Shown: in pieces, positions 10,834 to 29,000 of the stretch | Layout: each line of letters opens with the position of its first letter | How positions within the stretch are numbered: position 1 is the first letter of the stretch | Assembly (NCBI GenBank): GCA_023246355.1 | Contig: JAHFIQ010000001.1 | Location: 81,887-145,886, forward strand | DNA from: Candidatus Uhrbacteria bacterium | Lineage (GTDB): Bacteria; Patescibacteriota; Patescibacteriia; UBA9934; GWF2-40-263 | Length of the DNA stretch: 64,000 nucleotides | Direction: 5' to 3' | The notes under the pieces: model-generated | Seen by the model: only the letters and a program-made list of their open reading frames with translations | Databases searched by the model: none | What the model was told of the DNA's origin: nothing | Translations under genes and position numbers: made by a program

Positions 10834-10856
10834 ACCCTATTCTACCAGAACCTGAG

Positions 10857-12101
10857 TTAAAACCTGAGTTCTGCATTCAATTCCATCATCATCTTGAGCT
10901 CTTCGTCCGTCAGTGTCTCTTCTTTTGCTGCACGACGTTCGGAAAGCAGCTGCACCACCGGCATGCCCTTCAAAACCGCATCTCGCGTGACTCCCATGTA
11001 AAGTTTGTTAAGGGGCGACTCCCGCCAGGCTTTGATGCCTTCAATTTTTTTGTCATACCCCTGTTCTTCCAACAAGCCGACTTTGTCTTTTACTTTTGTG
11101 GCCGCCTGCTTTGGATCAGATGAAAGCCGACGGAAATCTAGAAGACTCAACATCCGCAATTCTTCCACCGGCCCGGTCAGCCGTTTTTCAAAGGCAATCT
11201 CTTGCATGGATGCCTGGGCCTGTACGCGAGGACGTTTGGGAACAGCGGGAACCTTGCTCTGCTCAATGGCGTTGCGAACCTGACCTGTGAGCTGCTCATA
11301 GCGCTTGGCGAGTTGAGCTTCTTCTTGTTTTGCCACGTCTTGTTTTTCAATGACCTTTTTTTGTCGAGCCTCTTTTGCTGCGCCCTTTTCTTGTTCCTGT
11401 TTGACCATGGAGGCTTCCTGATAGCGTGTCACTTCCCCCTCGATCATCGAGAGCATGTCAGCAAGCCGTCGTCCTGTGACCCCCAGTCCTCCGGCATCCA
11501 CGGATCGCTCGAGCTGTGAACGTGTCTGTTCGGCGGTTCTGACCTCGCGCACGCGAGACTCGACGAGCTTGCCACATCTGTCTTTCAAAAGAACATCTGA
11601 AAATTGAAACGCGGGGTTTTCGCAAATCGTTTTCACAATGCTCTCAACATCAACAGGCGCGGCAGAGGTGAGAACAGCAGCGTGTTTTTCTTTGATCGCT
11701 GCAAGATCTTGTTCATCTTGAGCGTGATCGTCTTGTTGTACAACCGCGCCCAAGGGTTTGGTCCCTGAGTCGGATGGGATTAATGGGACGGATGAGGCGG
11801 CCGGTTTTCCAATCTTTCCAGCAAGCAAAATCGAAACGATTTCATCCAACAAGGTCATGGCCTTCATCCGCTCGAGTCCCAAAAGCTTCTTGATGGTCTC
11901 GATCAGTTCTTCTTCTGTCCTGGACCCTTCACACAATTCGATCACATCGGAGTGGAGTTTGGATACTTCATCCTCTCCCCCGCCGGCTTCTGTCACCAAC
12001 CGCTCGAGTCCATCAAAAACCTCCGGGCTCCACAAATACGCGCGAGCTTCTTGAGACAATTCTTTTTTTTGTACGGTCGTAGTGCTTGTCATGAAGTTCA
12101 C
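10857..12101 (-). CDS. Hypothetical coiled-coil protein within the T4SS-like operon
   Basis: 414 aa, no TM, K/E/Q-rich coiled-coil segments. Its start overlaps the stop of the VirB6-like gene. Confidence 0.5.
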   Translation of the reverse strand: MNFMTSTTTVQKKELSQEARAYLWSPEVFDGLERLVTEAGGGEDEVSKLHSDVIELCEGSRTEEELIETIKKLLGLERMKAMTLLDEIVSILLAGKIGKPAASSVPLIPSDSGTKPLGAVVQQDDHAQDEQDLAAIKEKHAAVLTSAAPVDVESIVKTICENPAFQFSDVLLKDRCGKLVESRVREVRTAEQTRSQLERSVDAGGLGVTGRRLADMLSMIEGEVTRYQEASMVKQEQEKGAAKEARQKKVIEKQDVAKQEEAQLAKRYEQLTGQVRNAIEQSKVPAVPKRPRVQAQASMQEIAFEKRLTGPVEELRMLSLLDFRRLSSDPKQAATKVKDKVGLLEEQGYDKKIEGIKAWRESPLNKLYMGVTRDAVLKGMPVVQLLSERRAAKEETLTDEELKMMMELNAELRF

Positions 12102-14830
12102 GTAGTTCTAGCCTTCTTCTCCTCTTCTCTTTTTTTCAAGTACGCCCGCATCGCGTTCAACTGCGCTTCTACTTTTGCAAACTCCTTGCCTTCATCGGTG
12201 GCTGGATCAACCACAGGATTTACTTTTTCTGCTTCCTTCTTCGTGATTCTATTCAAAATGTTCACGACCGTGGAAGCCTTGTCGACATTCTCGGGTTTAG
12301 CCGCTTCCTTGGCTGCATCAGCCTCTGCTCTGGCCGCAGCTTTATCTTGAGGGCGATTCATGGGATCAGCCGCAGCGCGCTGTGCTGTTTGTTCAGCTCG
12401 ATCTGCGGTCGCTTGTAATTGTGCGGCCACCTGTGACCTTGCCGCTGCAAGATCACGAGCAAGCTGATCCAACTCCTGCGTGACCTTTTCACGGGCTGGT
12501 TCCAATCTTGATTTCTGTTCTGTTTCAACCCTGCCGACATCTCGCTGAACGGCCTCATCCACACCGCGAGTAACACGATTCATGTGTTGTGCTGAACTTG
12601 AACCTGGTTTCATGGCACCAACGTTCTGAGCGGTTTCACGCATGACCGTCACAATTTTCATCCGCTCACTGGGATCCGTAGCTCCATGAAACTTGGCTCC
12701 AAGATTGCTCATGAGCGTCCTGGCACGATTTTCGTCGCCGGCTCGCATCGCCGCCTCTATGGCTTTTCTGATTCCATCAGCGGTTCCTTTCTCACCAAGG
12801 GTCGTCACATTCACACGAGCCAACTCTGCATCATTCATGCGCTCATATTTTTCTCCTTCACCGCTGGTAAGCGCATTCTTCTTTGCGTCGCCCGCTCCGC
12901 CCAGACCCTTTGACACAGCATCATAAGCAGAAAGATACTCCCCATCGGCTCCACGCACATCCGACTTCACATTCCTCAACCGTTCCTGAATGGCTTTATC
13001 TTTCAGGGCATCATCATTCAGGCCTTTGACATCATCCCAAGTGCTGATAAGCCCTGCAGATTTCGTAATATCGGCATTGGATTTTTTGAAGTCGTTAATC
13101 TGATCCAACTTGGCCGCATCGTGTTTGTTATCGTTTGTGAACTCGTTGCCTTTCTGCGCCCAAGCTTTTTGCAATGTTCCATCAGCTCGCGCTTCTTTTT
13201 GCATGCGCTTGTCACCCATGGTTTCATCCAAAAGCGCCTTGTACTGCGCGTCTTCTTTTGCAGAAAGCGATCCGCCACGTGCAACTTGATTGGCGTAGGT
13301 TCGCATGAGGTTCAACTTTTCGTCGCGACCCTTGTTCTTCATGCCTTCCTTAGCAAGCTTCATGTCCTCAGTACGCGCAAGCCCAGCCTGCGCTTTGGAA
13401 CGAGCTTGAACCCCAACACCAAGGCGTTCGAGCGTTCTGAGTCCTGTCACCTTTCCCGTCTTTTGTACGATGCTGCCTGCACCTGTCTTCACAGATTCAC
13501 GAGCAGAAGCATACCCTCGAGCAACAGCCGATGAGCCTGGTAAGTAGCTCGCGACTGTCACAGCGGCAGAAGGAGCGCGATAGGCACCCTTGGCTCCCAA
13601 TCGCAATCCTGCGCCACCAGCTTTAAGACCAAGGCCACCGGCTCCGAGACCCAATGCAGCCGCCCCTTTTGCAAGCACACCACCCCTGGCTTTTTGTAGA
13701 GATTTCCCAAGCACGCCGCCGGACAAAGACGAACACAATTGTTGAGCGGCATCAAACCCGGCAAACAACATAGCCATGCCGATGAGAAAGCTCATGAAAT
13801 GTTGAGGTTCGAGTAACTTAGAAGCAAGGTCAGCAGAGTTCGCTGAACTTACATTAAAACCAGTCTCGGCCGCTATATTTCCTGCTCCAGCTACGGCAAG
13901 AGTCAGCCATAAGAAAAAAGTAAGAACAGGGCCTACACCAACCAAACACTTAAAACGATCCCACCATTTTGCATACGCGTCTGATTGAATGATGCCGCTT
14001 GAACCGCCTGCTCCACCAACAAACCAGGCGAGCGGAGAAATCACCACCAAAATCCACAGACCAATAATACGATAGATCAAAATCACTACCAACATGATGA
14101 GCGTTCCTAAGACCCACAGGGTGAGCAAGACAGACATGATGCCACCACCTAAGTAGTCAAAATTATCAATAGTTTTTCCTGCAGCCGTCCCAACGTCGTT
14201 GAGCGCCTGAATGTTTGTGCTCACCTGATACAATTGATTCAGTCCTAAAAGTTGAATAAAGTTTCCGGCCGCAATCTCACGCAGGGCATTGGCAAAGGTG
14301 AGCATGATCACCTGACCAAAATCGATCATGATGCCACAGAGGGTTTTTGAAAAGTTGATCACGATCGCAAAGGTGAGAAGTTTTGGCACCTGCTGTGACC
14401 ATTGAAACTTGGAGTGACCGAAGATGGTTCCAAACGCTATGATGATGAGCACGATCACAAAAAACATGTTGACTGTGTCGCGCATGATGGCCCAACCAGC
14501 ACTCACCACTTTGTTGGTCACAAAACTGTTATACGTCATGATGGGAACCATGAGGTCAATCATGAGTACAATACCTTGGGTCAAAATGCCTGCAATAGAA
14601 TAGGCAATATTGGCGAGCGTACCTGCAATAGTATCCAAGACGCTCAGTCCACCGAGAGCAGCCGCAGAGGCGCCGGGAGCTGCGGCCCGAGTCATCACCG
14701 GAATCAAAAAAGCAAAAAGAGACGAAACAAAAACACCTCCCACACGACCAAAACGATGCGGAGTCTTCCGCTTCGCACGATCGCTGAGCCAGTCTTTGAG
14801 CGCATGCAGACGCAGAAAAAGCTTCAGCAT
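12098..14830 (-). CDS. VirB6/TrbL/PrgH-like polytopic membrane protein with a long hydrophilic C-terminal domain
   Basis: 910 aa: about 8-10 TM helices in the N-terminal 400 aa, then a ~500-aa charged tail. Assignment is by topology and synteny (VirB6, VirB3, VirB4, VirB8 order) only. Confidence 0.5.
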   Translation of the reverse strand: MLKLFLRLHALKDWLSDRAKRKTPHRFGRVGGVFVSSLFAFLIPVMTRAAAPGASAAALGGLSVLDTIAGTLANIAYSIAGILTQGIVLMIDLMVPIMTYNSFVTNKVVSAGWAIMRDTVNMFFVIVLIIIAFGTIFGHSKFQWSQQVPKLLTFAIVINFSKTLCGIMIDFGQVIMLTFANALREIAAGNFIQLLGLNQLYQVSTNIQALNDVGTAAGKTIDNFDYLGGGIMSVLLTLWVLGTLIMLVVILIYRIIGLWILVVISPLAWFVGGAGGSSGIIQSDAYAKWWDRFKCLVGVGPVLTFFLWLTLAVAGAGNIAAETGFNVSSANSADLASKLLEPQHFMSFLIGMAMLFAGFDAAQQLCSSLSGGVLGKSLQKARGGVLAKGAAALGLGAGGLGLKAGGAGLRLGAKGAYRAPSAAVTVASYLPGSSAVARGYASARESVKTGAGSIVQKTGKVTGLRTLERLGVGVQARSKAQAGLARTEDMKLAKEGMKNKGRDEKLNLMRTYANQVARGGSLSAKEDAQYKALLDETMGDKRMQKEARADGTLQKAWAQKGNEFTNDNKHDAAKLDQINDFKKSNADITKSAGLISTWDDVKGLNDDALKDKAIQERLRNVKSDVRGADGEYLSAYDAVSKGLGGAGDAKKNALTSGEGEKYERMNDAELARVNVTTLGEKGTADGIRKAIEAAMRAGDENRARTLMSNLGAKFHGATDPSERMKIVTVMRETAQNVGAMKPGSSSAQHMNRVTRGVDEAVQRDVGRVETEQKSRLEPAREKVTQELDQLARDLAAARSQVAAQLQATADRAEQTAQRAAADPMNRPQDKAAARAEADAAKEAAKPENVDKASTVVNILNRITKKEAEKVNPVVDPATDEGKEFAKVEAQLNAMRAYLKKREEEKKARTT

Positions 14831-15017: not shown

Positions 15018-17018
15018 TCACAATTGAGAATTGTCCGTGTAACCGTTGCCGATGCCCTGAAGTCCATCACTGGGATCCCAGGACACGTAGATGAGCCACT
15101 CCTCCCAGCTGGTGTCGTTGTCCATGAGCTCGCACAGGTCACTCCCACCGGAACAGAACCCATCGTTCTGCCACCAGTACCAGTTGCCCATGCTCGAATC
15201 CGGATCGTCACCGTCCGTGCCTTCAGCGTTGATGAGACTCATCTGCACTTCACAGTCGTAGGCAAACTCCGAGAAGTCGATCTCGTAGTAGCCACCACTG
15301 TTTGCGTAGACAAGGTCACCGCTTGAGAGCGTGCCGTTGTAGCATCCGCCATTGCCGTAGACGTAGGCGTCTTCACCGTCGATCGCGGAAGTGAGCCAGA
15401 GGTCGTCGGCCATGAGCAAGGTTTCGTAGAGTCCGTCTCCATCGCTGTCCACGATGCAGGCGTCTTCCCCATCGCAGTCCGTGTTGGTTTCAGGATCTTC
15501 GACTTCCTCTTCCTCATCGGTGTCTTCCTCATCAGCTTCTTCTTGGTCAGATGCGTCAGATGGGTCGGATGCGTCCGTATCCTCGTTGGATGCGTCCGCG
15601 TCATCACCATCTTCATCCTCGTCTTCATCCGACGTCGAGATCTCCTCGTCCTCGCCGTCCGATGAACCGCCGGTGCTGCCGCCACTGACCAGATCCAGTC
15701 CGCCGCCACAGGTCGCGACTGCATCCTCGTCCAAGCACCACTGATCTGCCGCGCAACTCCCGACCGTATCGAGTTCGCCCACGGTGCCGTCTGCCACCGT
15801 GATGATGTTGCGACTCAGATACCCCATCATGAGGTACATGTCCCAACTCACGATGGGCAGTGCGACTCCGCCGGAAACTTCCCACACGTCCGAGGCATCC
15901 TCTTCTTTGACGAGCGTCCCGTCGCGCAGCCCAACGTAGGAACTGCTCGGCGGCCAGGTTTCCATGTAGTCGCTGGAATCCGAGTACGTATCCGGATAGT
16001 TGTCCGTCCCGTAATCGAGTCCCCAGGACTCCATCACCGCCTCCCAGCCGATCTCGCGCACGCGGGCGCGATAGCGATTGGGGTCCGTGCTGGTTCCCAC
16101 GAACAGCCAGAGCTGCTCTTCGGTATCAAACGCGGCCTGCACCCAGCCAGTCTGCGTGATGTCGTCGCCCTCGCCCAGGCAGTCGAGTTCCTCGTCGGAG
16201 ATGATGACGACTTCCTCAAAGTCCCAGTTGTGACCCCAGAAGACGTCCTCGTTCTCGATCCACCTGGCCGCACCATCTTCCAGGACGTAGACGCGGGCAT
16301 TGTCACCGGTCTTCACGAGCGTCCCATCCGGATGCCAGAGCGGTACCGAAAGCTGGCTCTCGTAGAAGTCCCCGTCATGCGGATCACCTTCACTGGCGAT
16401 CCCGCAGACGAAGTCCTCCGAGTCGATCATCTGGGCCTCCCCGCGATCGCTCGCATTGGCTGCCCAGTACAGCGTGGGAATCGACACGCCGTTTCCGGCA
16501 TCCTCGCTGGCATCACCTTCATGAAGCCCGATGTGGATGTGGTCGCCGCTTGAGGCGCCCGTGTTTCCCTCGTACCCGATCAGCTCTCCCTGTCCGACCT
16601 CGTCCCCATCGCCGACAAAGATGTCGGAGAAGTGGCCCAGCACGATGTAGGTGCCATCACCCAGATCGATGTTGACGTGGTAGCCGAAGCCAGAGGTGGC
16701 ATCGAGATGCACGTAGGCCGTGCCCGAGATGGGCGCGTAGACTTCCTCGTCTGCGTAGTTGTTCGTATCCAGATCGATGTCGTACTCGGTGGACGTCTTC
16801 GAGTGGCTGTGAGAGCCGTGGGCTCCCTGCGTACACATGGTCTCGTGACCAGATTCCAGAGGAAGCTGGAGCGCTCCCTCACCTCCCCCTTGATCGGAGG
16901 AACCATTCGTCTCACGGGACACATCGAAGGGCTCGCAGCCCGACATGACGATGATCGTCAAAGCGCTCACAATGAGCGTGCTCACAAACAGGTAGCTTGG
17001 CAAACGATGGAAAAACAT
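15018..17018 (-). CDS. Lipoprotein with peptidase M23 domain, long D/E/S-rich acidic linker and C-terminal domain
   Basis: Likely start MFFHRLPSYLFVSTLIVSALTIIVMSGC (lipobox). M23 motifs GYHVNIDLGDGTYIVLGHF and GNTGASSGDHIHIGLHEG. Acidic low-complexity stretch of about 80 aa. GC about 63%. Confidence 0.65.
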   Translation of the reverse strand: MFFHRLPSYLFVSTLIVSALTIIVMSGCEPFDVSRETNGSSDQGGGEGALQLPLESGHETMCTQGAHGSHSHSKTSTEYDIDLDTNNYADEEVYAPISGTAYVHLDATSGFGYHVNIDLGDGTYIVLGHFSDIFVGDGDEVGQGELIGYEGNTGASSGDHIHIGLHEGDASEDAGNGVSIPTLYWAANASDRGEAQMIDSEDFVCGIASEGDPHDGDFYESQLSVPLWHPDGTLVKTGDNARVYVLEDGAARWIENEDVFWGHNWDFEEVVIISDEELDCLGEGDDITQTGWVQAAFDTEEQLWLFVGTSTDPNRYRARVREIGWEAVMESWGLDYGTDNYPDTYSDSSDYMETWPPSSSYVGLRDGTLVKEEDASDVWEVSGGVALPIVSWDMYLMMGYLSRNIITVADGTVGELDTVGSCAADQWCLDEDAVATCGGGLDLVSGGSTGGSSDGEDEEISTSDEDEDEDGDDADASNEDTDASDPSDASDQEEADEEDTDEEEEVEDPETNTDCDGEDACIVDSDGDGLYETLLMADDLWLTSAIDGEDAYVYGNGGCYNGTLSSGDLVYANSGGYYEIDFSEFAYDCEVQMSLINAEGTDGDDPDSSMGNWYWWQNDGFCSGGSDLCELMDNDTSWEEWLIYVSWDPSDGLQGIGNGYTDNSQL

Positions 17019-17445
17019 GGCATCACACGGTCTTTTGAACGTACGTAACTGGGTCAAGATGAACCGGAATGGATCAACTTCCCCGGGCGGCGCAATAAGC
17101 CTCTTGCACCGACCCATGGACGTCGACCACACTCTCCAAAGTCACGGGTCCAGAAGTCTCTTGTCCTCCCCACCAACAGACTTCCGTTAAGCTTGGACCT
17201 GTTCTCTGGCACCGCAGCACCGCCGCTTGGAATCATTGAGGGAACCTTCGATTCCCTGAACGCAACCGTTCTTGTTCCGTTGCATGCAAGTGATGCAGAT
17301 GTGTGTGCGATCTACAATCATCAAATCAAAAAACCGCTCATGGGTCAAGCAGTTTTTCGCTAAATTTAGATATTTTTTGTTAATGCTCTTTTTACACGTG
17401 TCGATGCCTTTCAACAAAATATCAAACATTGCTTTTCTTTTTTGT

Positions 17446-18735
17446 TCACTTTTTCTTTGCAACCTCTTTGTGAATAACTTCTTTGCCCATCCATGGACGC
17501 AGCACTTCAGGAACCACAACAGATCCATCTTGCTGCTGATAATTTTCCAAAATGGCAATGATCGGACGACACATAGAAAAGGCTGTTCCATTGAGCGCGT
17601 GGGAAAGCACGTTTTTATTTCCCACCTTCACCCGCGTGTTCAAACGACGTGTCTGAAAGTCTGTGGTGTTGGAAGTGGAAGATGTTTCCCGATAGGTTTT
17701 CTGACTGGGGATCCAGGTTTCGATGTCATAGGTACGAGCAGAAGGAGCGCCGGTGTCGCCTGAGCAGAGCTTCATCACGCGATGTGGAAGATTCAATCCT
17801 TGCATGAGCCGCTCTTGGATCGACAGAAGGAGTTCGTGCTCCTCGTCTGATCCCTCAGGAGTCGTGAAGGAAAACATCTCGACTTTATCAAATTGGTGAA
17901 CACGCAAAATGCCGCGTGTATCTTTCCCATACGACCCTGCTTCACGGCGATAGCACGGAGAAAAACCAACATACCGCAGCGGCAGATGATCTGCATCTAA
18001 AATTTCATCCATGTGCATGGGCCCGATGGATTGCTCTGAGGTGCCGATGAGCACCATTTCGTCATGCTTCAAGTGGTAGATTTCCTCCTCGCCGCCGTGC
18101 TCGAGATATCCCATGGCGCTCATGGCCTTGGTCGAGATGAGATGCGGAGGAAGGACAGGGATGAACCCCGCCTTCATGGTTTCTTGCAGGGCATACTGAA
18201 GCAGAGCCATCTCAAGAAGCACTCCATCGCCTTTCAAATAAGCAAAGCGCGCACCAGAAACCTTGGCCGCACGATCCATGTCGATGATTCCCAAATCCAC
18301 ACCAAGATCAAGATGGTCTTTTGGCTCAAACGAAAAGGCTGTGGGTTCGCCGAAGGTACGCATCACCTGATTGGCTGTTTCATCACGACCAATCGGCACG
18401 TCGTCGCGCAAGAGATTTGGATATCGACGCAACTCGCATTCAAGATCCCCTTCTGTTTGCACGAGTGTGGCTTCAAGATGTTTGACTTGATCCTTGAGCG
18501 CCTTGCCTTCCTGTACAAGTGCCTCACGGTTCTCAGCTTTGGGAATGAGTTCAGCCACCTCGTTGGCACGGGTACGCACAACCTGAATTTCCTCCAACGT
18601 GGTAAGACGCTTTTGTTGCAAAGCTTGGGCAACAGACACATCAATGTCTTTCCCACGATTTACATTGTTTTTGGCAATACGCTCAGGCTCCTCCATGAGC
18701 TGTTTGATGTCGATCATACGACCACTATGATGCAC
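17446..18735 (-). CDS. serS: Seryl-tRNA synthetase
   Basis: N-terminal coiled-coil arm and class II motifs (FSPCYRREAGSYGKDTRGILRVHQFDKVE). 429 aa. Confidence 0.9.
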   Translation of the reverse strand: MHHSGRMIDIKQLMEEPERIAKNNVNRGKDIDVSVAQALQQKRLTTLEEIQVVRTRANEVAELIPKAENREALVQEGKALKDQVKHLEATLVQTEGDLECELRRYPNLLRDDVPIGRDETANQVMRTFGEPTAFSFEPKDHLDLGVDLGIIDMDRAAKVSGARFAYLKGDGVLLEMALLQYALQETMKAGFIPVLPPHLISTKAMSAMGYLEHGGEEEIYHLKHDEMVLIGTSEQSIGPMHMDEILDADHLPLRYVGFSPCYRREAGSYGKDTRGILRVHQFDKVEMFSFTTPEGSDEEHELLLSIQERLMQGLNLPHRVMKLCSGDTGAPSARTYDIETWIPSQKTYRETSSTSNTTDFQTRRLNTRVKVGNKNVLSHALNGTAFSMCRPIIAILENYQQQDGSVVVPEVLRPWMGKEVIHKEVAKKK

Positions 18736-18780
18736 GAACTTGGAATAAATGAAAAGACGAGAGGCGGGCTCTCGTCTGCG

Positions 18781-20511
18781 TTACTTGATCCCCGTGCACT
18801 TTTGGAAGCGTGCCGTGCAGGTGATCGTCGTGATCCCGGGAGTCACGTTGAGCGTCCCGGTTTGGGGCGCTCCGTTGCGGCCGTCCATTTGGACCGTGAC
18901 CTGGTAGGTCCCCTCTGGCAGCTTCACTGTGGTATCGGCAGGCGAGACACTGAATGTGCCACCTGCACCAACCAGCTTGATCGTTGCGACCGTGTCTTCC
19001 TTCAAGATGAGCCGCACCATGGCCGGCTCCGTCTGCAGCGCGACTTCAGCAGGAGCCTTCACGACCGCAGCTGTTTTTTGCGTCTTCTTTTCGATCTTGG
19101 TGGGCGCGGGAGGCGCGACTTGGACTGGAGCAGACACGGGCACAACCGTCTCGACCTTGGGAGTCACAGAGGGCACAGACACCGGCTCCTCCTGCACGGT
19201 CGGAGCAACAATCGCAACCGGCGTGCTGCTGTTCGTGAGATACCAGACGGACATCACAGCGATCACGAGAACCGCTGCAATGACACCCAGACTCAGGAAG
19301 AACTTCCGCTTGGCCGCTCTGCGGGTTGAATCAAGCTCGCGCTCAAACTGCGTTCCGCTCTGGGTCCCTGCTCCATGGAGCGTTCCTCCTGCTGGCTCAG
19401 CGCGCCCTCCCCATGGATTGGCAACCTCCGCTTGCGAGGACGTCGCCACCTTTGGAGCGGAGACAACTCGTCCTTCTTCTTCGACACTGGCCAGTCCTCC
19501 CGAGGAGGCATGAACTCCTCCCCTGGGCGGCAAAATCGTCACATGCGGATCGCCAGGCTTCGGGGATTCCAGTCGAACACGCTGTGCCTCACGGCGGGCA
19601 CGCTCGACCTCAGGAGCTGTTCCCAGTGCATGGGTGATTTCTCCCTCGGGAAGCGCCTCGAGCGCATCCCTCAGAACCTGCGCCATCACCTCGGCCGTAG
19701 AATAGCGATCATCTCGTTGTTCTGATGTGGCCTTGCGGATCACCTCAGCAAGCACGGGAGGAACCCCATCCATCATGTCTGGATTGCGAGCAAGGGTGAC
19801 GTGAAAGGCATCATTCCACATTCGCTCAGGATTCATGAGCATGATGTAGAGCGTCACAGCCACGGCGTAGAGGTCTGCTCGACCATCCACGTTTCGGGCA
19901 TCCCGCTGTTCAGGCGCCATGTAGGCAAGCGTGCCAAGCGTGGTCACATCAGCCGTGAGCTGCCTGGTTCCACTTTCGATGTGGGCGATCCCGAAGTCGC
20001 CAAGCTTTGGCGTGCCGCCTTTGGTAAGGAGCAGATTCTCGGCCTTTACATCCCGGTGGATGATCGGCGAAGGCTTTCCTTCTTCGTCAGTGTGCGTGTG
20101 CGCGGACGAAAGCGCGGTGAGAATCGCGATCGCGACTTGGGTAGCCTGACGAGGCGGCATGCACCCGAACTCGACCAGATGGTCGAAGAGCGTTCCACCT
20201 TCCAGGTATTCCATGATGATGAAGGGATACCCATTCACATCATCCACTTCGTACACTTCGACGAGATGTGGACCCCGAAGCCTTGCCATCACGCGTGCTT
20301 CGTTGAAGAAGCGACGACGCAATGTCTCAGACCTGAGATAGGTTGGGTTGATGAGCTTCAAGGCTCGCCGTCCCAGCACGTCATGGCGCACCAAGACGAC
20401 CGAGCCCATGGCCCCACTTCCCAAAACCCTCTCGACCGTGTAACGCTTGAGCGGAGTAAGGAGCCCCCGCACTTCCGCAAGAACTGCTGCGTGTGGATCA
20501 GGGGGCATGGT
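18781..20511 (-). CDS. Hanks-type Ser/Thr protein kinase with TM segment and C-terminal PEGA domain
   Basis: LGSGAMGSV glycine loop, HRDVKAENLLL, DFGIA and APE motifs. TM helix SLGVIAAVLVIAVMSVWYL. C-terminal KLPEGTYQVTV PEGA-like motif. Likely start MPPDPH at 20511. GC about 63%. Confidence 0.8.
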   Translation of the reverse strand, partial: TMPPDPHAAVLAEVRGLLTPLKRYTVERVLGSGAMGSVVLVRHDVLGRRALKLINPTYLRSETLRRRFFNEARVMARLRGPHLVEVYEVDDVNGYPFIIMEYLEGGTLFDHLVEFGCMPPRQATQVAIAILTALSSAHTHTDEEGKPSPIIHRDVKAENLLLTKGGTPKLGDFGIAHIESGTRQLTADVTTLGTLAYMAPEQRDARNVDGRADLYAVAVTLYIMLMNPERMWNDAFHVTLARNPDMMDGVPPVLAEVIRKATSEQRDDRYSTAEVMAQVLRDALEALPEGEITHALGTAPEVERARREAQRVRLESPKPGDPHVTILPPRGGVHASSGGLASVEEEGRVVSAPKVATSSQAEVANPWGGRAEPAGGTLHGAGTQSGTQFERELDSTRRAAKRKFFLSLGVIAAVLVIAVMSVWYLTNSSTPVAIVAPTVQEEPVSVPSVTPKVETVVPVSAPVQVAPPAPTKIEKKTQKTAAVVKAPAEVALQTEPAMVRLILKEDTVATIKLVGAGGTFSVSPADTTVKLPEGTYQVTVQMDGRNGAPQTGTLNVTPGITTITCTARFQKCTGIK

Positions 20512-21427
20512 ATGCCTCCGTGGAAAGAGTGGGTGGCTGCTTGGCACCGAAATGCACTTGGAACCCAACGCCCAATCCTGTGAACACGAGCGTGGTACCA
20601 GCTGCGACGATCGAGGCCGCGCCAAGGGTGTTGGCGCTGCTCTGATGGCCGAGCAGTTCCCCATCTGGGGTTCCTGGATCCTCAAACAGTGATCGCTCGT
20701 TCATGGCAACCGCGTAGAGGACACCGCCAGTCAGGGCCGAAACCCCAGCCGCGATGTACCACGGACGCGGGTCCTTGAGCGGCGAGCGCTTGATTCCCAA
20801 GTCCGCGGCCGTCAGCCCCAAAGGATTGTCGCTCCACTTGGGGATCGCCTCACCTGGTTGGATGTAGCGCGTCTCCATGAGCACGTCGCCAGGTCCAAAC
20901 ACTTGGATCACCACCGGCGTTGCCTTGTAGCGCGCGGCATTGCGGACTCCCGAGACCATGATGTAGCCACCGATGGGCGGATAGACCGGCTCGGCTTCGC
21001 CGTCTGCAACAGAGGCTGCTGTCTCGTACAGAGCACGCAACGGGTGATCCGCATCCACGACCTCGGTTGAAAACGCGTAGCCTGGCTCGAGCTTGCGCGC
21101 GGCATGGAACTCCGCGATCGCCCTGGGTTCATCGTTGTTGATGAACGCCTCCATGGCCATCAGTCGATGAAAACCGGCTGCGGCGTTCACGGACAGTGGC
21201 TGTGCAAGGCACGGGAGGATCCTGGTCCGCGCGAGCGTCGAGGCAGTGAGAAGCCCTTCGGCATTCATCTGCGCGAACGCCTCCTCAGCGACGACTTCCG
21301 ATCGCGTCAAATCGGCGAGCACCGTGGGCACTTCGCACCCAGCCAGGGCCGAACGCGGCATCACAATCGACAGCGCCAACATGGCACTCAACAGAATCTT
21401 GGACATCTTCCCTCCGATAGATTTCAT
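20498..21427 (-). CDS. Hypothetical lipoprotein/exported protein with C-terminal TM
   Basis: Signal peptide with lipobox LAGC. 309 aa. Overlaps the kinase start by 14 nt. GC-rich. Confidence 0.45.
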   Translation of the reverse strand: MKSIGGKMSKILLSAMLALSIVMPRSALAGCEVPTVLADLTRSEVVAEEAFAQMNAEGLLTASTLARTRILPCLAQPLSVNAAAGFHRLMAMEAFINNDEPRAIAEFHAARKLEPGYAFSTEVVDADHPLRALYETAASVADGEAEPVYPPIGGYIMVSGVRNAARYKATPVVIQVFGPGDVLMETRYIQPGEAIPKWSDNPLGLTAADLGIKRSPLKDPRPWYIAAGVSALTGGVLYAVAMNERSLFEDPGTPDGELLGHQSSANTLGAASIVAAGTTLVFTGLGVGFQVHFGAKQPPTLSTEAYHAP

Positions 21428-21490
21428 CGTCCTTTGACCTCAAAGAACGAGGCGATTTTTTATCATAAATCGCCCTCAACGTCAATATAG

Positions 21491-21629
21491 CATGGAGACC
21501 TCTGCAAAACTCGATGAGATTGCGTTGAACGGGCTGTCGAGCCCCACGAGACGTAGGTTATCTACGTAGAGTGGGGTCGACGGGTGCCCGTGAAACGCAA
21601 GATCGCGAGTTTTGCAGAGGTCTCCATGG
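21491..21629. repeat. Long-hairpin intergenic repeat element, copy 1 (inverted orientation)
   Basis: Perfect 23-bp terminal inverted repeat catggagacctctgcaaaactcg / cgagttttgcagaggtctccatg. Conserved core ctcgatgagattgcg ... cgcaagatcgcgag. Confidence 0.75.
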
Positions 21630-21637
21630 TTTAAAAG

Positions 21638-22081
21638 CTACCTAGTGTCCTCAACAGTCCATTCAGAAACGCGAGTTGCAGCTTCGATCTGTTCTGTCGT
21701 TGGTGAAACAACAATGGAGTCAGAAATGGAAGTGGTGAGGTCTGAGTTCAGATCAGACGCGGTCGTGACTTCGCCCGCGAGATCAACCTTGATGGTCATT
21801 TGAAACTCACTTGATTTGGTCTCGCGGATGGTCACAATGCTGACGGATCCTGCATCAGCCTGACGCACAAACCAACCCGTTGGTGCTTCAAAAAGCACAG
21901 AAACCTTGCTGGACATGACATACGTGGTCATGTCGATTTCCTCCTCAACGATCTGCACCCGCTCTTGTGCATTTGAATCCTCCGCGAAAAATTCCTGGTT
22001 GACGGAAGATTGCGCACATCCAGCACCGAGAAGAACAAGGCCGAGTAAAAGCATTGATGATCGCATAGAGAATTTATTCAC
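21638..22081 (-). CDS. Hypothetical lipoprotein
   Basis: Signal peptide with lipobox LLGAGCAQS. 147 aa. Confidence 0.5.
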   Translation of the reverse strand: MNKFSMRSSMLLLGLVLLGAGCAQSSVNQEFFAEDSNAQERVQIVEEEIDMTTYVMSSKVSVLFEAPTGWFVRQADAGSVSIVTIRETKSSEFQMTIKVDLAGEVTTASDLNSDLTTSISDSIVVSPTTEQIEAATRVSEWTVEDTR

Positions 22082-22195
22082 ACCTTACCCACTTTTTGTT
22101 AGAAAAAGCTGATTTTACGGCCTGAGTTGGGAGCCTGGCTCCCAACTTGGTGCTGGCGGGGTTGACAAAATCACCAAAAAGGCGCTAAATGGAAG

Positions 22196-22228
22196 TAGAG
22201 ACTAGCTCTTTTCCGGCCGAAAGGCCAC
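22196..22228 (+). promoter_or_regulatory. Sigma70-like promoter for the 22239 lipoprotein gene, with upstream hairpin
   Basis: TTGACA, 17-nt spacer, CTAAAT; the preceding hairpin gttgggag/ctcccaac lies at 22127-22147. Confidence 0.35.
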
Positions 22229-22238
22229 GGAGTGCATC

Positions 22239-22853
22239 ATGACCAGTTCCCTGCGCTTTGCGCTTCTTCCCCTGGCCCTCGGGCTGGGATGCAATGGCCT
22301 TCCGGGAACGGATGGCCAGGACTGCGAAGGTTCGGCCTGCACGCAGGACTCCGGGGACGGCAACGACCCCGAGACCTACGTCACCGCGGCCCACATGGTG
22401 GCGCCGTACGGATGGATGGGCGACTTCAGCGCCGACAACGACACGGTGTGCGAGAACGCGGCCGAATGCCTGTTCGAGCCCGACGACCCGGACACCTACG
22501 AGCTCGAGCTCCAGGGAGATCTCTTCCTGTGCGTGAGCCAGGAGACGCCGCTCACCGAAGCCGACGCTGCCGCGACCACGGATCTCACCTGGGAAGGCGA
22601 AGGCCAGTGTGGTCTCGCGCCGGATGGTCAGTACAGCCAGTTCGACGTCAAGACCGATACGCACGACTGGATCGGTTACGACCAAGTGCGGATCCAGATC
22701 GACTCCTGGGGAGCTCCGGTCACGAAGGACGCCTTCTCCTGGGAAGACTCCGACTACCTGCTCGAAGGTACGATCGCCAGCGACCTCTCCTCGATCACCT
22801 ACCACCTGGCAGCTGGATCGAACGAAGAGACCGCGACCATCACGCTGCAGTAG
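22239..22853 (+). CDS. Hypothetical lipoprotein (acidic, GC-rich gene)
   Basis: Signal peptide with lipobox ALGLGCNG. 204 aa. GC about 68%. The overlapping ORFs on both strands are high-GC artefacts. Confidence 0.55.
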   Translation: MTSSLRFALLPLALGLGCNGLPGTDGQDCEGSACTQDSGDGNDPETYVTAAHMVAPYGWMGDFSADNDTVCENAAECLFEPDDPDTYELELQGDLFLCVSQETPLTEADAAATTDLTWEGEGQCGLAPDGQYSQFDVKTDTHDWIGYDQVRIQIDSWGAPVTKDAFSWEDSDYLLEGTIASDLSSITYHLAAGSNEETATITLQ

Positions 22854-22871: not shown

Positions 22872-22900
22872 CCCCGACTACGACAGTCGGGTTTTATTAT
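22872..22900 (+). terminator. Rho-independent terminator
   Basis: Stem cccgact/agtcggg followed by ttttattatt, directly after the lipoprotein stop. Confidence 0.5.
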
Positions 22901-22901
22901 T

Positions 22902-23029
22902 GAGACCTCTGCAAAAGCCGCGATCTTTGCTTTCACGGGCACCCAGGCACCTCCTCAACGTAGTTTTCACTACGTTTCGGAGGCTGCCAGCCCGTTCAAG
23001 CAAATCTCATCGACTTTTGCAAAGGTCTG
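22902..23029. repeat. Long-hairpin intergenic repeat element, copy 2
   Basis: gagacctctgcaaaagccgcgatc ... core acgggcacc ... caagcaaatctcatcgacttttgcaaaggtctg. Lies between convergent gene ends. Confidence 0.7.
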
Positions 23030-23074
23030 TATTGTCTATATTATCCCGAACCAAGTGAGGGATGACGCAGAGCG

Positions 23075-26000
23075 TCAATCCGGCGTAACAGCAATCGTGC
23101 CGTCAAAGTTGATCCAAGGATTCGCTGTTCCTGCTCCGCCATAGTCCACACACGAACTTGAATCTCCTTCAGAGGGACAGCTCTCAATATTACACTCTCT
23201 AACACTCGTCCCATCCTCCGTCTCCCCTGAAAAACAATTATCCGTACCATCCGCACCCGCGTCACAAAACCCAGTGCACCAGCCCCAGTTGTCAGTCACA
23301 CTCACGCGAGGCTGGAAGACACAGGCACCGCTTGAATCCAAGCACGGCGAGTTGAGTAAACGGGTTGTGTCTGTATCGTCATACTCACAGGTTCGAGAGG
23401 TGAGCAGCGCCGTATCGCCGTCTGTGCAAATGTAGTCGTGAGCGAAGTTGATGTAGGACGTGGAGCAGGCTGTGCTCGATGTTCCAAATTCAACTGGATC
23501 GCTACCACAAATTTCTTGCTCTGACGTCGCATTCAACCCGCGATGGTTTTGATAGAAGTTGTCTTCTGCTGTGGAGCCACTTTGAGAACCCGTCGGCCAG
23601 TGCGCGCCAAGACCCGTAGGTTGGACCCCACCAAAATCATCTCCCCAGTCGATCACAATCCGACGAATCGGCATCTGGTTAGAATTCGCGTAGGTAAAGA
23701 AGCTCACGTTGGCATGATACGTCCCCTCTCCTTCCAAATCTCCCCCGTCGACCTCTCCGATATTGAACTTCCCTTCCGTGTCCTCGATACATTCAGTACC
23801 CACACAATCTCCCACCGACACCACCGTCGGCGGCTCAGGTTCATTATCATCGTCGCCCACGGAACGCGTGTCCCAGAGCCAAGGTTCGTCTGCCGCTAGA
23901 TCTTCATATGCAACAGGGGTCCAACTCCCAAATTGCTCTCCTGTATTAAATCCAGTTGTCAACGCGCCATCAGGAACTTCTTGAGCTGCCACACCTTCAT
24001 ACCCGTCTTCAAATTGAATCATGCCATAGATGCGACCAAACAATTGTGATAGTCGGCTAATCGCATCATCAATTGTGTCGTTCTCTGTAAAAGTCGTGTA
24101 TCCACTCGTTGGAACAACGGAATCAAACGTCATCGAAAAATCACGGAAACTGCGAGCGTCCTCACCAGCCGTACTGGTAAAACTGCTAGCAGAGGCATCG
24201 CAGGCCGTTGTTGTTTCAACAGGTGGAATCTGGTAGTCGTCGTTTCCTTCTGAACACATCACAGGAGTGTGAGCCCAAGGGTCAGGATTGTCATCAGTTG
24301 TAAATTCCACTGCCAATTCTTCAGGATCAGTCGCCACACCATATGGAGAAAGAAGCGTGTCATAGGTATACCCAAAGTGGGCATCATCTCCACCTGGATC
24401 AGCAATAGAAAACGCTGCTGAAGAACTCTCCCACAGTCGATCGGTCCAAGCCGCATTGTAGGAATCGAACGGGTAGTCATCTTCATTTGGTTCTGTGGCA
24501 GAAACTTGAACAAGGGTCGAACAAGCTGGATATCGGGTAAACACCCATGCTGCCAGAGAGTCGACTCCAGTAATTCCATCAGCATAAGAATAGTAATATC
24601 CACAGCTCACCAAATTATTTCCATAACAGGTCGTTGGATCTTCTGTGGTTGGAATACCGTCCTCCAACAAATCATAAGGTGACGTAAACTCGTCAAGACT
24701 ATCACCTAAGACACCTCGTGCTGCACAATCGTCATACAATTCAAATGCATTATCAAATCTCCATGGCGCCAACACATATACTTCTACATTGAGACCAGGG
24801 TACCAGTGGTCACCTACATCACTTGTGTTAACCGAATAATCTACCGTGTAATAATTCCCAGGAGACAAGCAGCGATCTCCATCATCACCCTCTGCGTCAG
24901 TTGCTGTCTTGTAAGAAAATTTCGGTACACAGAAATAGGGACAATCATCAGTCGTAATAGACGCTCCACAATACTGACCGCTTGCTCCACCATTTAGATC
25001 ATGATACGTGGAGTTATCTTGACCTCCACACCCTGTCATCACGGCAAAATAACCTTCTGGACAAAACACAGAGGAAATACAGTCATCGTTTGTAGAATTT
25101 GAGGATGGATCATTCGCCGTTGCCAACCAAACATCCCATGTCGTCTCTGCATCATCTTGCTCAGCTTCTGTTCCTTCGTGATCGTAATACAATCCACCAT
25201 CACAATAGTCATCGACTTCCTCTGCACATAAAATGTTCGATGTCCAAACACTATACGCCGCCTCAATATCCGCACAGTAATACGTCTCCTGTGGCGTGTA
25301 GCCGGCGGAGGTGTATTTGCCGTACAAATCGGTCGAGCCGGCGAGTTGGTCCACCGGGAGCCAGCTGAGACAGGCTTGGTCTTCTGTGTCAGAAGAACCG
25401 AGCGTCTGGATCGAGGTATCTTTTTCAATGCAGTAGCCTTCCCAGCCGTACATCGTGGAAACACCGCTCAACGCCGAGCAGGTGCCCACTTGCGTAGTAC
25501 CAATGGAACAATCATCGTCATCAAGACACGGAAGTCCTGGAACAGGTCCACCTGTACAAATGCCATCTGGAACCTCGCCACTCTGGCTGAACGTATCTGC
25601 CCCTGTGCCTGCCTCATAGTAACGGTATCCGGAACCTTCTCCGTATTCCACTTTATCGTAGCTACAATCACAGTCCACTGGCTCGCCGTATAAATCTAAT
25701 CCACACACCGCAGAATCTTGGAACCCTCCCACATAGGCATAGGGCAGAGAGTACCAAGAAGCTGGCAGACCTCCTGATCCGGAAGCGCTAAACGTCGCAT
25801 CCGTTGGAGACGTGCCATCAGCCGTGCTGTATCTGAAGGTCTTCCAGTCATCAACGACCGACGTTGGATACGGCGAATCGATCTCTGGATACCCTCGGCA
25901 GCCCATCTCACGGCCAGAGGTCACTTCGCCGCCAGAAATCGCCAAAGTATCGGCATACCCATCGCCGTTGTCGTCCTTGATGTCGGACAGACATCGGTTG

Positions 26001-29000
26001 TTGAAGCACTCACCGGTGGTTGAGGTGGAAGCTGGAACACAGGTGGCACCATACGCATACGCGCTACAACTTGTATCTGCATCGCAAGCTTCAGTGGCAA
26101 CAAAATCATTTTCAGACGTGAACTTATCTACACAGACAAACTGCACAGGATCGCAGAAATACGTATGAAGCCCAATGTCGGTCGTGTTTGTTGTGCAATC
26201 GGAATTGGTACCATCACTGGAATTATCATTATCGGGATTACACGAACAGTCGGAATTAACACAATTCGTTGTTCCACTCGCCTGACAATATCCCACCACG
26301 CAGGCCTCAGAACCTGAACAGTCATCATCGGATGCACACGCGCTGCCAGAGTCCTCGCACATTCCAATAGAACACGATCCTCCATTGCCATCACCAGACT
26401 CTGTCGCATCACATGGTCCGGCGTTATAGACGAGACGATAGTCCGTGTCGGAATTATTTGCGCAAGAGTAGTAGCAATATCCAGAATCGGAACAGATACC
26501 AGAGTACGAGGCACAGTCAGCATTCGTCGTACACGCTGTCGTGCTAACTCCGCAATCTTCGTACGTATTACAGTACGTAGGAAGTCCAGCATCGTTGGTA
26601 AGTTCGGTCGACGTCGTTTCCATGCACACCGTCGTTGGCTCCAAATTAAACTGCGTATACAAATCCGTCGGGAGCTGATTGGGGATGGTGCCGCCTGACC
26701 ACTCCTCGCCAAACCAATTCACGTCACGTGCTGAATACTGATAGGCACCCAAAATTTCTGGATCGCTCGAATCCCACTGTGTACATGTTGAGGTATCACC
26801 CTGGTTGGTTCCCTCCACGCACAGATTGATGGAATCACAAATGGTGTCGTAGGTTGAAGACGTTGTGTTCCAACTGGTCTTGGATGATTCACATGCCAGC
26901 CACGCTGAACACGAGCGATCACGATTCACTTTGATGACTTCGTTCGCATCGTCATCAAGAGCATATGTCGCGGACACGTCCTCACAGGTTGCGGTCACGT
27001 CTTCTCCCAAATTGGTTGTAAGCACAGGGCAGTCGTCATCCACCAAACAAGAACGTTCATAAACTTGTGTGGAAGAAACTTCTGTGGCAGAAGGCGTGTC
27101 AATCGAATCTCCATCTTCGACTTCATACGAACAGCGTCGTGCGCACAAATCTACGGTCTCGCTTGTGAGTCCCAGCGCATCTGCATCTGAGGAGGAAACC
27201 GTAAACTCACCACCCTCGTCCAACTCACAGTCGATCGGATCCTGAAGGGAATTTTGCTCTTCGCCAAAGAAGACATCCGCATGCATGGACACCACATACG
27301 AGGCCCCGGCGTTATAGCTCAACTCCGAGTCGGTTGTGTTATTGAATACGGCGCAGCCAAACTTCTGGCTCACTTGACCATCACAGCGCTGGGTATCGGT
27401 AAGCGTGTCTTCGCTGAGCAAATCATCATTGGTGAAGTAGTACGACTCTCCGTCCTCACCCCCGCCGCCAGCCGTGTCCACCACATCCACAAACTCGGTA
27501 CACAGATCATACGCGTCTTCACAGGCCGCCACCCAACCGTCATAGTCATCGTCACCATTGGCCCACACACCAAATTCATTGCCATTGATGAGGTAGGAAT
27601 CATCCTCGTCTGGATCAAAGTCGCCGCTTGCATCACTGTCAGTCCAATCGCACGGCTCCGTTGTGCCAGATCTAAACCAGCCTGAGTACTCCTGATTGCC
27701 GATCGTAACCGAGTCTTGATACTCACAGGTCTTGTCCAGTGGATCCTTAAAATAGAAATTCCCGTCTTGGGTGGAATCCCATTCTTCACAGAATAATTCT
27801 TCGTCACTGCACAGCAGCGTGTCGTAATCTTCAGGCAGATTCAGGTAATACACGGACTCAAAACTATCGACCTCTGACTGATCTTGATTGAACGTTGGCA
27901 AACCGAGCTCCTCACAACCCATGGCTTCCTCATCACATTCATAGGTGTCGTCGGCAACGAGATACACAGGAGCATCCGTGGGAACAATCACTGTTTCGGG
28001 CCCAAAGACAACCGCGTAGTGAACTGTTGAGCTCACAGCTTCAGAGGGCAATGGTTCCTCCAAAACCGTATCCGCATCAAATGTACAGTACGAAGAACCC
28101 GAAGTAATCGTGCAGTACTCAACTCCGTCGATCTCGCAGGTCGTGTTCGCGCCGACGGTTTCTGGCTCATCAGAAAAGTCCGTGTCAGAGGAATACATGC
28201 ACCTGGCGTTGTAGACCTGCTGGTAACTCGAATCAGAATTCCCTGTATCAAAGAATCCTTCACATCCAACGACATCCTCGGAACACAAATCTGAGAACTG
28301 ATACAGATCCGCGTCCACGCCGTTCTGATCCGTGTACGCTTCACAGCCAAGATAATACTGATCAGACTCTACTCCGTCAGCCGTCGCATCACAGGTTGAT
28401 GGCACCACCCACGAGTCTTTGATGAGCGTGATGTCTTCTTCGACCTGTTTGAGCGAGATGTTGTCCACGTAGGCTTCCGCAGCTGAGGCCACTCTAAATC
28501 GCAGGACCGCGTTCTCGTCAAAATCTGCGTAATCACTTGTGTCCAGTGGACCCAGGCTGAATAGCTGCCAGGAGCCCGTGAGTTCCACAGGTGTTAAATC
28601 TGAGGCAGAAGAAATGGTCGCACTTGGGTTTGACAGATCATGCGTGTCGCCCGATCCGCCCTCCTCCTCAAACGTGACATACATGTTCCCGGATCCCTTC
28701 GCCCAGAAGTCCACGACAAACGTTTTGCCACCCACAAGATCAGACGTGAGCGCTCCACAACTTTCCTCACTATCCTCAATCGTACAGTCTTCATCGGCTG
28801 AACCATCGGCATCTACATCATTTTCAACGTCACAGCCAGAGTCGCCTATCGTTCCTCCATTTCCTGTACAGGTTGTTGATGTTCCTGCTGCATCTCCTGC
28901 CTCATCATACGTTTCTGTTGTAGTTGCACTGTCCAAATAAATCTGGATCGTCTCAAACCCAGCCAAGCCACCGGTTGCAGAAACATAGAGTGAATGACCG

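Follow-up and report, generated by a model that had tools for sequence, protein, structure and literature searches.

A GC-rich receptor kinase operon beside serS is an old, conserved locus of Uhrbacteria with relatives in high-GC, Myxococcota-type genomes

Genes that are richer in G+C than their surroundings are readily taken for recent imports. Such a case is presented by a 64,000-nucleotide stretch of the genome of a Candidatus Uhrbacteria bacterium (contig JAHFIQ010000001.1, positions 81,887 to 145,886; the window hereafter), where a block at positions 18781-22853 encodes a Hanks-type Ser/Thr kinase, a membrane protein that we call p303, and two small proteins, p139 and p204. A sequence-only reading of this DNA had proposed that the block is a GC-rich island, acquired horizontally from a high-GC donor such as a member of the Myxococcota or Actinomycetota. 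We asked whether the block is recent or old in Uhrbacteria and, if old, where its composition comes from. As a whole, we consider it probable that this is a conserved core operon that goes back to an ancient exchange with a high-GC lineage, carries a gene-specific GC offset and encodes a sensor.

We scanned 185,579 species genomes with a profile of p303 and obtained 24 Uhrbacteria-type loci, all of which are ordered p303, kinase, serS (seryl-tRNA synthetase) and M23 peptidase gene as far as their contigs reach. The conserved arrangement is present at loci L003, L005, L006, L008, L009, L013, L014, L016-L038 and L075, and an M23 orthologue lies downstream of serS in every Uhrbacteria locus that reaches that far. 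The longer contigs share further neighbours with the window, namely proteins of about 950 and about 430 aa and a PrgI-like protein, together with an upstream giant protein of more than 3000 aa. Across the Uhrbacteria loci, identity to the window protein is 42-81% for p303, 29-60% for the kinase and 40-85% for M23; for serS it is 67-86% in most loci and drops to 41-45% in another deep clade, and p204 is 31-62% identical where serS is 67-86% identical. Because the same gene order is kept across related contigs, the block is ancestral to the Uhrbacteria clade and is not an island. With the orthologues kept in one order and orientation by the genomes of 24 further Uhrbacteria species, there is no place for the recent horizontal acquisition proposed earlier.

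The taxonomy of the best matches, which had been named as a check on foreign origin, also points to the same lineage: the full-length best matches of the kinase, p303 and p204 are all from Uhrbacteria or Patescibacteria, a result that had been set out beforehand as a refutation. For the kinase, one database protein is 100% identical and is followed by full-length matches at 60-40% identity (P0002-P0008), the named ones being from Uhrbacteria or Patescibacteria; beyond these full-length relatives, matches span the kinase domain alone and include Myxococcota and Actinomycetota. The p303 family comprised 52 proteins in the protein database search, with all named members from Uhrbacteria or Patescibacteria, and 61 loci in the genome scan. 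We found no tRNA gene within 10 kb of the region, no significant direct repeats at its borders and no integrase or transposase domain in the open reading frames between 15 and 23 kb.

The compositional anomaly itself is real, with 58.8% GC in 18781-22853 and 50.5% elsewhere in the window, but it is smaller than the 63-68% that had been given for it. Only single 300-nt windows reach such values (the peak, 67%, is inside p204), and no whole sub-block does. The window as a whole has 51.6% GC, falling to 50.5% after removal of the GC-rich genes, and 600-nt windows in that remainder have a standard deviation of 2.3% and a maximum of 57.3% GC. Nor is there one continuous island. The kinase and p303 together (18781-21427) have 60.4% GC and p204, the GC-richest gene of the window, has 64.1%, whereas the DNA between them (21428-22238: a hairpin element, the p139 gene and a spacer) has a normal 49.4% and interrupts the block. 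The M23 peptidase gene beyond serS is anomalous too, so that serS, with an ordinary G+C content at third codon positions (GC3), is flanked by GC-rich genes on both sides. The GC excess stops at gene borders.

Codon usage, which the sequence-only reading had named as a check, bears out that kinase, p303 and p204 lie above the background (z 2.1-5.3; background GC3 0.532 +/- 0.056 in 34 window genes; Table 1). The excess is seen in every class of synonymous site: in the GC-rich genes the fraction of C at codons ending in a pyrimidine (NNY) is 0.54-0.85 compared with 0.44 in the background (0.67 in M23, 0.85 in p204), that of G at codons ending in a purine (NNR) is 0.63-0.73 compared with 0.46, and G+C at four-fold sites is 0.65-0.83 compared with 0.55. 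The residues A, G, P and R make up 33-36% of the kinase and p303, and 16-32% (mostly 22-29%) of the other window proteins.

Where, then, does the operon have relatives outside Uhrbacteria? The scan that gave the Uhrbacteria loci also gave 37 loci whose contigs have 63-77% GC and whose p303 homologues show 33-47% identity. These high-GC contigs hold the only p303 relatives outside Patescibacteria among the species genomes scanned, and the relatives have a GC3 of 0.8-0.99. Where the contig titles are informative they read Myxococcota, Myxococcales or Deltaproteobacteria, and such titles are spread over most major branches of the p303 tree. A Hanks kinase is encoded on the same stretch in 29 of the 37 loci, directly adjacent in most, with small gaps or overlaps; p303 precedes the kinase in 14 loci and follows it in about 10. 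The linked kinases have the same layout as the window kinase and the same C-terminal motif (PxGTY...C..F..C), and their C-terminal domains match CarboxypepD_reg below threshold. A neighbour-joining (NJ) tree of p303 separated the Uhrbacteria from the high-GC proteins in 50/50 bootstraps. In an NJ tree of 142 kinase domains, the 23 Uhrbacteria kinases formed one group, and the next enclosing group held 26 of the 27 p303-linked kinases and 5 of the 92 unlinked ones, a neighbourhood recovered in 40/40 bootstraps.

Because the p303 and kinase trees agree, it is likely, as judged from these comparisons of sequence, that the Uhrbacteria stem and a Myxococcota-like high-GC lineage exchanged the operon a single time in the distant past; since then the operon would have been inherited vertically beside serS. 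A high-GC donor of the kind first suggested thus keeps some ground, as p303-kinase relatives do occur in Myxococcota-type contigs and the kinase phylogeny does show an affinity to the p303-linked high-GC kinases, but the connection is as deep as the Uhrbacteria clade itself and is not recent.

We also considered whether serS was transferred with the operon and rejected this, although at three high-GC loci serS divergently adjoins a kinase-p303 pair (L048 6132-10762, L052 400-5064, L054 390-5356). The serS genes of these loci are only 30-40% identical to any Uhrbacteria serS; the loci belong to one lineage (85-87% identity), and the adjacency is probably a coincidence, albeit one of low probability. 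The Myxococcota kinase P0057, which is unlinked, belongs to the same kinase clade and has a weak PEGA match, was predicted to have a p303 neighbour, and tblastn found none.

If the exchange was ancient, the present GC excess still has to be accounted for. We compared GC3, taken from the frames of tblastn high-scoring segment pairs, with that of serS in the same genome (Table 1, last column). The kinase, p303 and the p204 homologues exceeded serS in every genome compared and M23 in nearly all, and the giant neighbouring gene mostly fell below it. The largest contrast for p204 was 0.89 against 0.25, in L037. The offset holds at background GC3 values from 0.25 to 0.69; the genes follow the GC content of their host yet stay above it. 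At conserved codons, four-fold sites of the window and its nearest relatives are 36-62% identical, compared with 26-38% expected at saturation. This amounts to about one substitution per site for even the closest comparisons, and four-fold sites must be saturated across the Uhrbacteria clade.

It may be that the excess is a relic, that is, that the genes were imported from a high-GC lineage before the clade diverged, have ameliorated incompletely and are subject to no present force. The only outside relatives do have a GC3 of 0.8-0.99, and the involvement of all synonymous classes is what a mutational legacy would leave. At sites about one substitution apart between the closest relatives, however, an inherited offset should have decayed, and unevenly; with serS only 41-49% identical between the deep clades, it should be near zero and vary between lineages, whereas it is positive in 21/21 genomes across the whole range of backgrounds. 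M23 and p204 moreover have an equal or larger offset, and no high-GC relative of them was detected, albeit in searches that did not take in named genomes. A simple foreign relic is therefore rather unlikely. The present excess cannot simply be the leftover of an ancient transfer, and it looks like a gene-specific equilibrium.

The direction of the exchange is less clear than its occurrence. We lean modestly towards transfer into Uhrbacteria because the operon is single copy there and found nowhere else in Patescibacteria, because high-GC genomes have up to three paralogous loci and two arrangements, and because the outgroup kinases include Myxococcota. Transfer from Patescibacteria to Myxococcota, or patchy retention of an ancestral bacterial operon, would fit the reciprocal monophyly of the two groups in the p303 tree and the position of the Uhrbacteria kinases as sister to the linked high-GC clade instead of within it. 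Either is unlikely, given that within Patescibacteria the operon was found in Uhrbacteria-type genomes only, that one high-GC genome (CAZCVP01) has three paralogous loci (L041, L055, L073) in a group with two gene orders, that the Myxococcota proteins P0042 and P0057 are among the next outgroups of the kinase tree, and that only two phyla are represented among all species genomes scanned.

Translational selection for C- and G-ending codons in highly expressed envelope genes might also raise GC3. Secreted hydrolases and lipoproteins can be abundant, and M23 and p204 are indeed enriched in C-ending NNY codons. Yet GroEL, the one clearly highly expressed gene of the window, is without the excess (NNY C fraction 0.36, GC3 0.574), NNR and four-fold sites are equally enriched, G included, high expression would not be expected of a signalling kinase, and GC-rich amino acids are raised as well in the kinase and p303; we regard codon-usage selection as very unlikely to be the explanation. 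That 18781-22853 was imported recently, with its donor's composition retained and hairpins as its ends, is more improbable still and close to untenable: raised GC and GC3, the typical occurrence of PEGA-type Hanks kinases in Myxococcota and the Myxococcota and Actinomycetota among the unlinked kinase-domain matches speak for it, but 24 other species genomes have the same order and the same relative GC excess, the best matches are all of the same lineage, a normal-GC gap lies inside the block while the anomaly continues beyond serS, the hairpins are strain-specific and flank p139 and p204 only, and integrase, tRNA and direct repeats were not found at the borders.

We favour, as noted, a gene-specific equilibrium. 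An ongoing force acting on particular genes would keep p303, kinase, M23 and p204 at a roughly constant GC offset. That force could be GC-biased gene conversion, if such envelope genes recombine often, or selection on mRNA. A wider reading, which we put forward as a tentative one, is that a small and unchanging group of envelope genes in Uhrbacteria, whose genomes range from 42% to 60% GC, has had a synonymous GC 0.15-0.35 higher than the remaining genes for as long as the clade has existed, as a gene-specific equilibrium and not as a scar of transfer, and that at least the operon in this set was captured from Myxococcota. The set would consist of the p303-kinase operon, the M23 hydrolase and p204, and may include a MopE/FG-GAP protein encoded elsewhere in the window. 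Four-fold sites of M23 are more conserved than those of serS (identity 0.50-0.62 compared with 0.38-0.43 in L003, L005, L006 and L009), which hints at synonymous-site constraint in GC-rich genes.

Table 1. Features of the region and its surroundings, with GC3 in the window and relative to serS of the same genome
Feature	Positions	Strand	Description	GC3 in window (z)	GC3 relative to serS across genomes
M23 peptidase gene	15018..17021	-	about 667 aa, 59% GC; Peptidase_M23 54.7 bits; outside 18781-22853, across serS	0.738 (3.7)	above in 15/17, mean +0.18
serS (seryl-tRNA synthetase)	17446..18717	-	423 aa; Seryl_tRNA_N and tRNA-synt_2b	0.528	
Terminator-like hairpin after kinase stop	18755..18777	-	9-bp stem, 5 GC pairs, T-run tail; TTTCATTTAT		
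Hanks-type Ser/Thr kinase gene	18781..20508	-	575 aa, 59.7% GC, Pkinase match	0.648 (2.1)	above in 21/21, mean +0.15
Kinase C-terminal extracytoplasmic domain	18784..19038	-	85 aa, PxGTY motif, two invariant Cys		
Transmembrane segment of kinase	19237-19302	-	residues 403-424, single		
Kinase domain	about 19639-20442	-			
p303 gene	20498..21406	-	302 aa; alternative ATG 21427 gives 309 aa; 62% GC	0.719 (3.4)	above in 21/21 (Wilcoxon p 1e-6), mean +0.17
Terminator-like hairpin before p303 start	21450..21475	-	between hairpin element 1 and p303		
Long-hairpin repeat copy 1	21486..21633	.	148 nt, near-perfect palindrome, between p303 and p139		
p139 gene	21638..22054	-	138 aa from ATG 22054; GTG 22081 gives 147 aa; 49.9% GC	0.518 (-0.3, normal)	
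p204 gene	22239..22853	+	204 aa, acidic, Cys-rich, lipobox LGLGC	0.824 (5.3)	homologues above in 6/6, mean +0.35
Terminator-like hairpin after p204	22873..22891	+			
Long-hairpin repeat copy 2	22899..23039	.	141 nt		
Giant neighbouring gene	23075-32803	-	3242 aa		above in 1/7, mean -0.06
Further long-hairpin copies	about 33500-33635 and about 37220-37352		four copies in window		
MopE/FG-GAP protein gene	51708-54407	+	899 aa, 56.6% GC; outside 18781-22853	0.631 (weaker excess)	

The stop of p303 overlaps the start of the kinase gene by 11 nt, with GGAGG upstream of the kinase ATG, and this overlap with its GGAGG is identical in five relatives. The kinase starts at ATG 20508 and not at a TTG at 20685; the 100% identical protein P0001 was called with the same ATG. 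On the side of p139, a terminator-like hairpin (21450..21475) divides the p139 transcript from the p303-kinase operon, and the hairpin after the kinase stop is the 3' end of that operon. Because of the 11-nt overlap with GGAGG and the terminator-like hairpins on either side of the pair, we read p303 and the kinase gene as a bicistronic operon, predicted to be translationally coupled.

The kinase matches Pkinase (PF00069) at 125.2 bits (cut-off 31.7, E 4e-36) over profile positions 1-248 of 263. The motifs LGSGAMGSV (GxGxxG), ALK (K51), HRDVKAEN, DFG and APE are invariant in 8 kinase orthologues, with the catalytic residues at H151, R152, D153, K155 and N158, DFG at 171-173 and APE at 198-200; from the invariance of all catalytic motifs, the kinase is predicted to be active. 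Its best NCBIfam similarity is to the PknB_PASTA model, in the kinase part only (200 bits against a cut-off of 450). The single transmembrane segment is accompanied by a Pro/Ala/Val-rich linker and the 85-aa C-terminal domain, for which an AlphaFold 2 (AF2) model gave a 7-stranded beta sandwich with a predicted local distance difference test score (pLDDT) of 84. Foldseek neighbours of this domain in the PDB are transthyretin-like or carboxypeptidase-regulatory-like, at TM-scores of 0.5-0.6 and E values of 0.01-0.1 only; the best are a rhamnogalacturonan lyase domain, CBM41, domain II of carboxypeptidase D and HIU hydrolase. The domain falls below every Pfam threshold. PEGA (PF08308) reached 13.0 bits on the isolated C-terminus (gathering cut-off 20.8, E 0.097, 18 residues aligned) and gave no match at E < 0.01 in a Pfam search of the whole kinase protein. 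Of the description first given, a Hanks-type kinase with a transmembrane segment and a PEGA domain, the first two parts stand and the third does not reach the Pfam cut-off; going by the model, 'PEGA-like fold' is a reasonable term for the domain.

No Pfam or NCBIfam family matched p303. Its AF2 model (pLDDT 85) has a signal peptide, a TPR-like helical domain at residues 30-132, a beta domain at 148-182 and a C-terminal transmembrane hairpin, and a comparison of this model with the PDB gave only weak TPR-like hits at E > 0.4. Uhrbacteria and the high-GC group alike show no variation at residues C24, F44, C66, H80, R81, G147 and Q168. The block had been said to encode three lipobox proteins. Using the pattern [LIVMFWSTAG]2-[LIVMFYSTAGCQ]-[AGS]-C near the N-terminus with no charge in the six preceding positions, we found that p139 (in either form, lipobox LLGAGC, of the PS51257 type) and p204 match it, but that p303 does not. 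Cys24 of p303 is lipobox-like in the window strain (LAGC), yet an R at -6 breaks the PS51257-type pattern, which is matched by only 4/52 members of the family and, among the loci, by 1/25 from Uhrbacteria and 2/37 from the high-GC group. The invariant Cys of the high-GC homologues follows an AxA signal peptidase I site at a distance of 2-6 residues. Cys24 is more likely to be structural, together with the invariant Cys66.

From these features we propose that p303 would be a membrane protein with a cleaved signal peptide and an extracytoplasmic TPR-like domain stabilised by the two invariant cysteines, and that the kinase would be of the receptor type, with a cytoplasmic catalytic domain, one transmembrane helix and an extracytoplasmic transthyretin/PEGA-like sandwich. 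The extracytoplasmic modules of the two proteins would together form an envelope sensor, which would control the cytoplasmic kinase and through it the phosphorylation of targets. That p303 and the kinase form such a sensor is probable, in so far as domain layout and conservation can tell.

Several points weigh against the explanation that we have given. We considered T246 of p303, in a 'DPxTPD' motif of the cytoplasmic loop, as a target of the kinase and rejected it as a family feature; high-GC homologues have V, A or L in place of this candidate phospho-acceptor, which by the alignment is unconserved there. The taxonomy of the high-GC group rests on record titles, many of which are plainly wrong. 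All trees are distance (NJ) trees, and monophyly of the Uhrbacteria kinases was recovered in 24/40 NJ bootstraps. In the kinase tree the Uhrbacteria proteins appear as sister to the linked high-GC clade and not nested in it, which weighs against a firm direction of transfer. The genomes in the GC3 comparison are phylogenetically non-independent and their backgrounds are local (<=20 kb).

Kinases with a similar architecture are well known. PknB/Stk1 (kinase, transmembrane segment, PASTA repeats) and the beta-sandwich kinases of Myxococcota are built in the same way as the window kinase. It differs from PknB/Stk1 in that its 85-aa ectodomain, which ends in a C-x6-C tail, is not PASTA and is predicted to be a transthyretin-like sandwich, that it is always encoded with a dedicated membrane partner, p303, of no described family, and that its host is a reduced-genome bacterium of the candidate phyla. 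The likeness to PEGA (PF08308, transthyretin clan) consists in a PxGxY-type motif (LPEGTYQV), a length of about 70-85 residues and, in the model, an all-beta sandwich; invariant cysteines like the two at its C-terminus are not known from PEGA domains. The locus would add to the few signalling systems in bacteria of the candidate phyla radiation (CPR) a receptor kinase with an undescribed family of membrane partners. A literature search returned nothing relevant on a kinase or horizontal gene transfer (HGT) in Uhrbacteria, on PEGA-domain kinases or on GC3 in Patescibacteria.

With genomic islands, and the amelioration model of horizontally acquired genes that is said to go back to Lawrence and Ochman, the locus shares an atypical composition in a few adjacent genes, and its closest relatives outside the phylum come from a phylum of similar composition. 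Unlike the genes of that model, those of the window are present at the same locus in every relative, without mobility genes, and their offset shifts in parallel with host GC, which the model does not predict. GC-biased gene conversion, which Lassalle et al. reportedly linked in 2015 to recombination and GC3 heterogeneity in bacterial genomes, resembles our case in that all synonymous classes are raised, that the effect is limited to genes and that some of these are fast-evolving surface proteins (identity 44-60% for the kinase and 31-62% for p204). The class-level-stable offset of +0.15 to +0.35 is nevertheless much larger and more gene-specific than is known for such effects. The locus is a caution for composition-based detection of HGT, in that what looks like a GC-rich 'island' may belong to the vertically inherited core, with a gene-specific force holding its composition away from that of the genome. 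Its constant GC3 offset offers a natural test case for amelioration, biased gene conversion and synonymous-site selection, and the likely exchange would be a concrete, datable case of gene flow linking a CPR lineage with a phylum that is free-living and predatory or social.

The long hairpins had been taken as the bounds of an island. Copies 1 and 2 bracket p139 and p204 only, and the left end of the region (18781) is adjoined by an ordinary terminator-like hairpin instead of a long one. The long hairpins fold at -65 to -101 kcal/mol (z -10 to -15), copy 1 at -101 and -91 kcal/mol on its two strands (z about -15). Their terminal motif GAGACCTCTGCAAAA and its complement are conserved, as is the central ACGTAG...CTACGT tip. 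An Rfam search of the whole window returned five tRNAs only and no family for the long hairpins. A search of 77 loci located them in no contigs other than those of the same strain, and related Uhrbacteria lack them in the equivalent intergenic stretches. They therefore resemble a mobile palindromic element peculiar to the strain or species.

Neither p139 nor p204 has a family in Pfam or NCBIfam. Orthologues of p139 were found in L003/L016 (77% identity) and, weakly, in L020. Homologues of p204 amounted to 4 proteins, itself included, among 5.8 billion, and 2 metagenome loci; the named one is from Patescibacteria, the lipobox is kept in 3/4 family members, and no homologue on a high-GC contig was found in the protein database or the metagenome contigs. 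In 7 Uhrbacteria loci, weak p204 homologues (GC3 0.56-0.93) lie upstream of p303 on the opposite strand. In the M23 peptidase, the signal peptide includes a lipobox-like VMSGC that matches the pattern, and the C-terminal half is acidic. Lgt and LspA are not encoded within the window.

Uhrbacteria have two deep serS types, 41-49% identical between types and 55-86% within them (L025, L026, L030, L033). Both are found at the same locus between kinase and M23, and they represent either a very deep divergence or a replacement of serS in place. Two relatives carry an IS200/IS605-type Y1 transposase gene (~42% GC) between kinase and serS (L005 6156-6809, L006 2965-3633), and upstream of p303 L005 also has a mutator-type transposase and a fragment of a toxin (Tox-REase-5). 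Because of the transposase insertions in L005 and L006, we consider that the neighbourhood tolerates insertions while its core order is kept.

Downstream of M23 lies a conserved cluster on the minus strand (7398-14830) that resembles type IV secretion or conjugation systems. It encodes a TraG/VirB4-like P-loop ATPase (7398-9506) and a weakly TraC-like protein (9589-10392), and a PrgI-like protein is among the products of the L013 regions that correspond to 10415-10876 and 12098-14830. Possibly, the M23 peptidase serves this type IV secretion-like apparatus as its cell-wall hydrolase. On its other side, the region is directly adjoined by the gene for the giant protein, which is acidic, Cys-rich and secreted and has homologues at the same position in L014, L018, L019, L024, L026, L036 and L037. 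Further away, the product of 51708-54407 is acidic and contains FG-GAP repeats as well as four 'putative metal-binding' motifs of the Cu-binding_MopE type; this gene may be in the same compositional class as kinase, p303, M23 and p204.

Many record titles in the data set are clearly in error, and titles need checking before they can serve as taxonomy. An Uhrbacteria contig is entitled 'uncultured Gammaproteobacteria', and contigs of 65-73% GC are entitled 'Enterobacterales' or 'Klebsiella pneumoniae', one Klebsiella title standing on a MAG of 66% GC; affected titles include those of L016, L020, L025, L028, L029, L031, L033 and L037-L043 (third-party TPA assemblies). Several of the metagenome-assembled genomes share a source. 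The co-assembly ERP119705_co14 yielded both the Uhrbacteria locus L016 and the high-GC locus L070; from SRP077602, L037 came from co8 and L041, L055, L057, L065 and L073 from co7; and from SRP167671, L029 came from co2 and L043 and L052 from co1. Because they come from the same sequencing projects, Uhrbacteria and the high-GC genomes that bear the operon appear to share habitats, and Myxococcota with a homologous operon might be hosts or neighbours of Uhrbacteria, which are presumed episymbionts.

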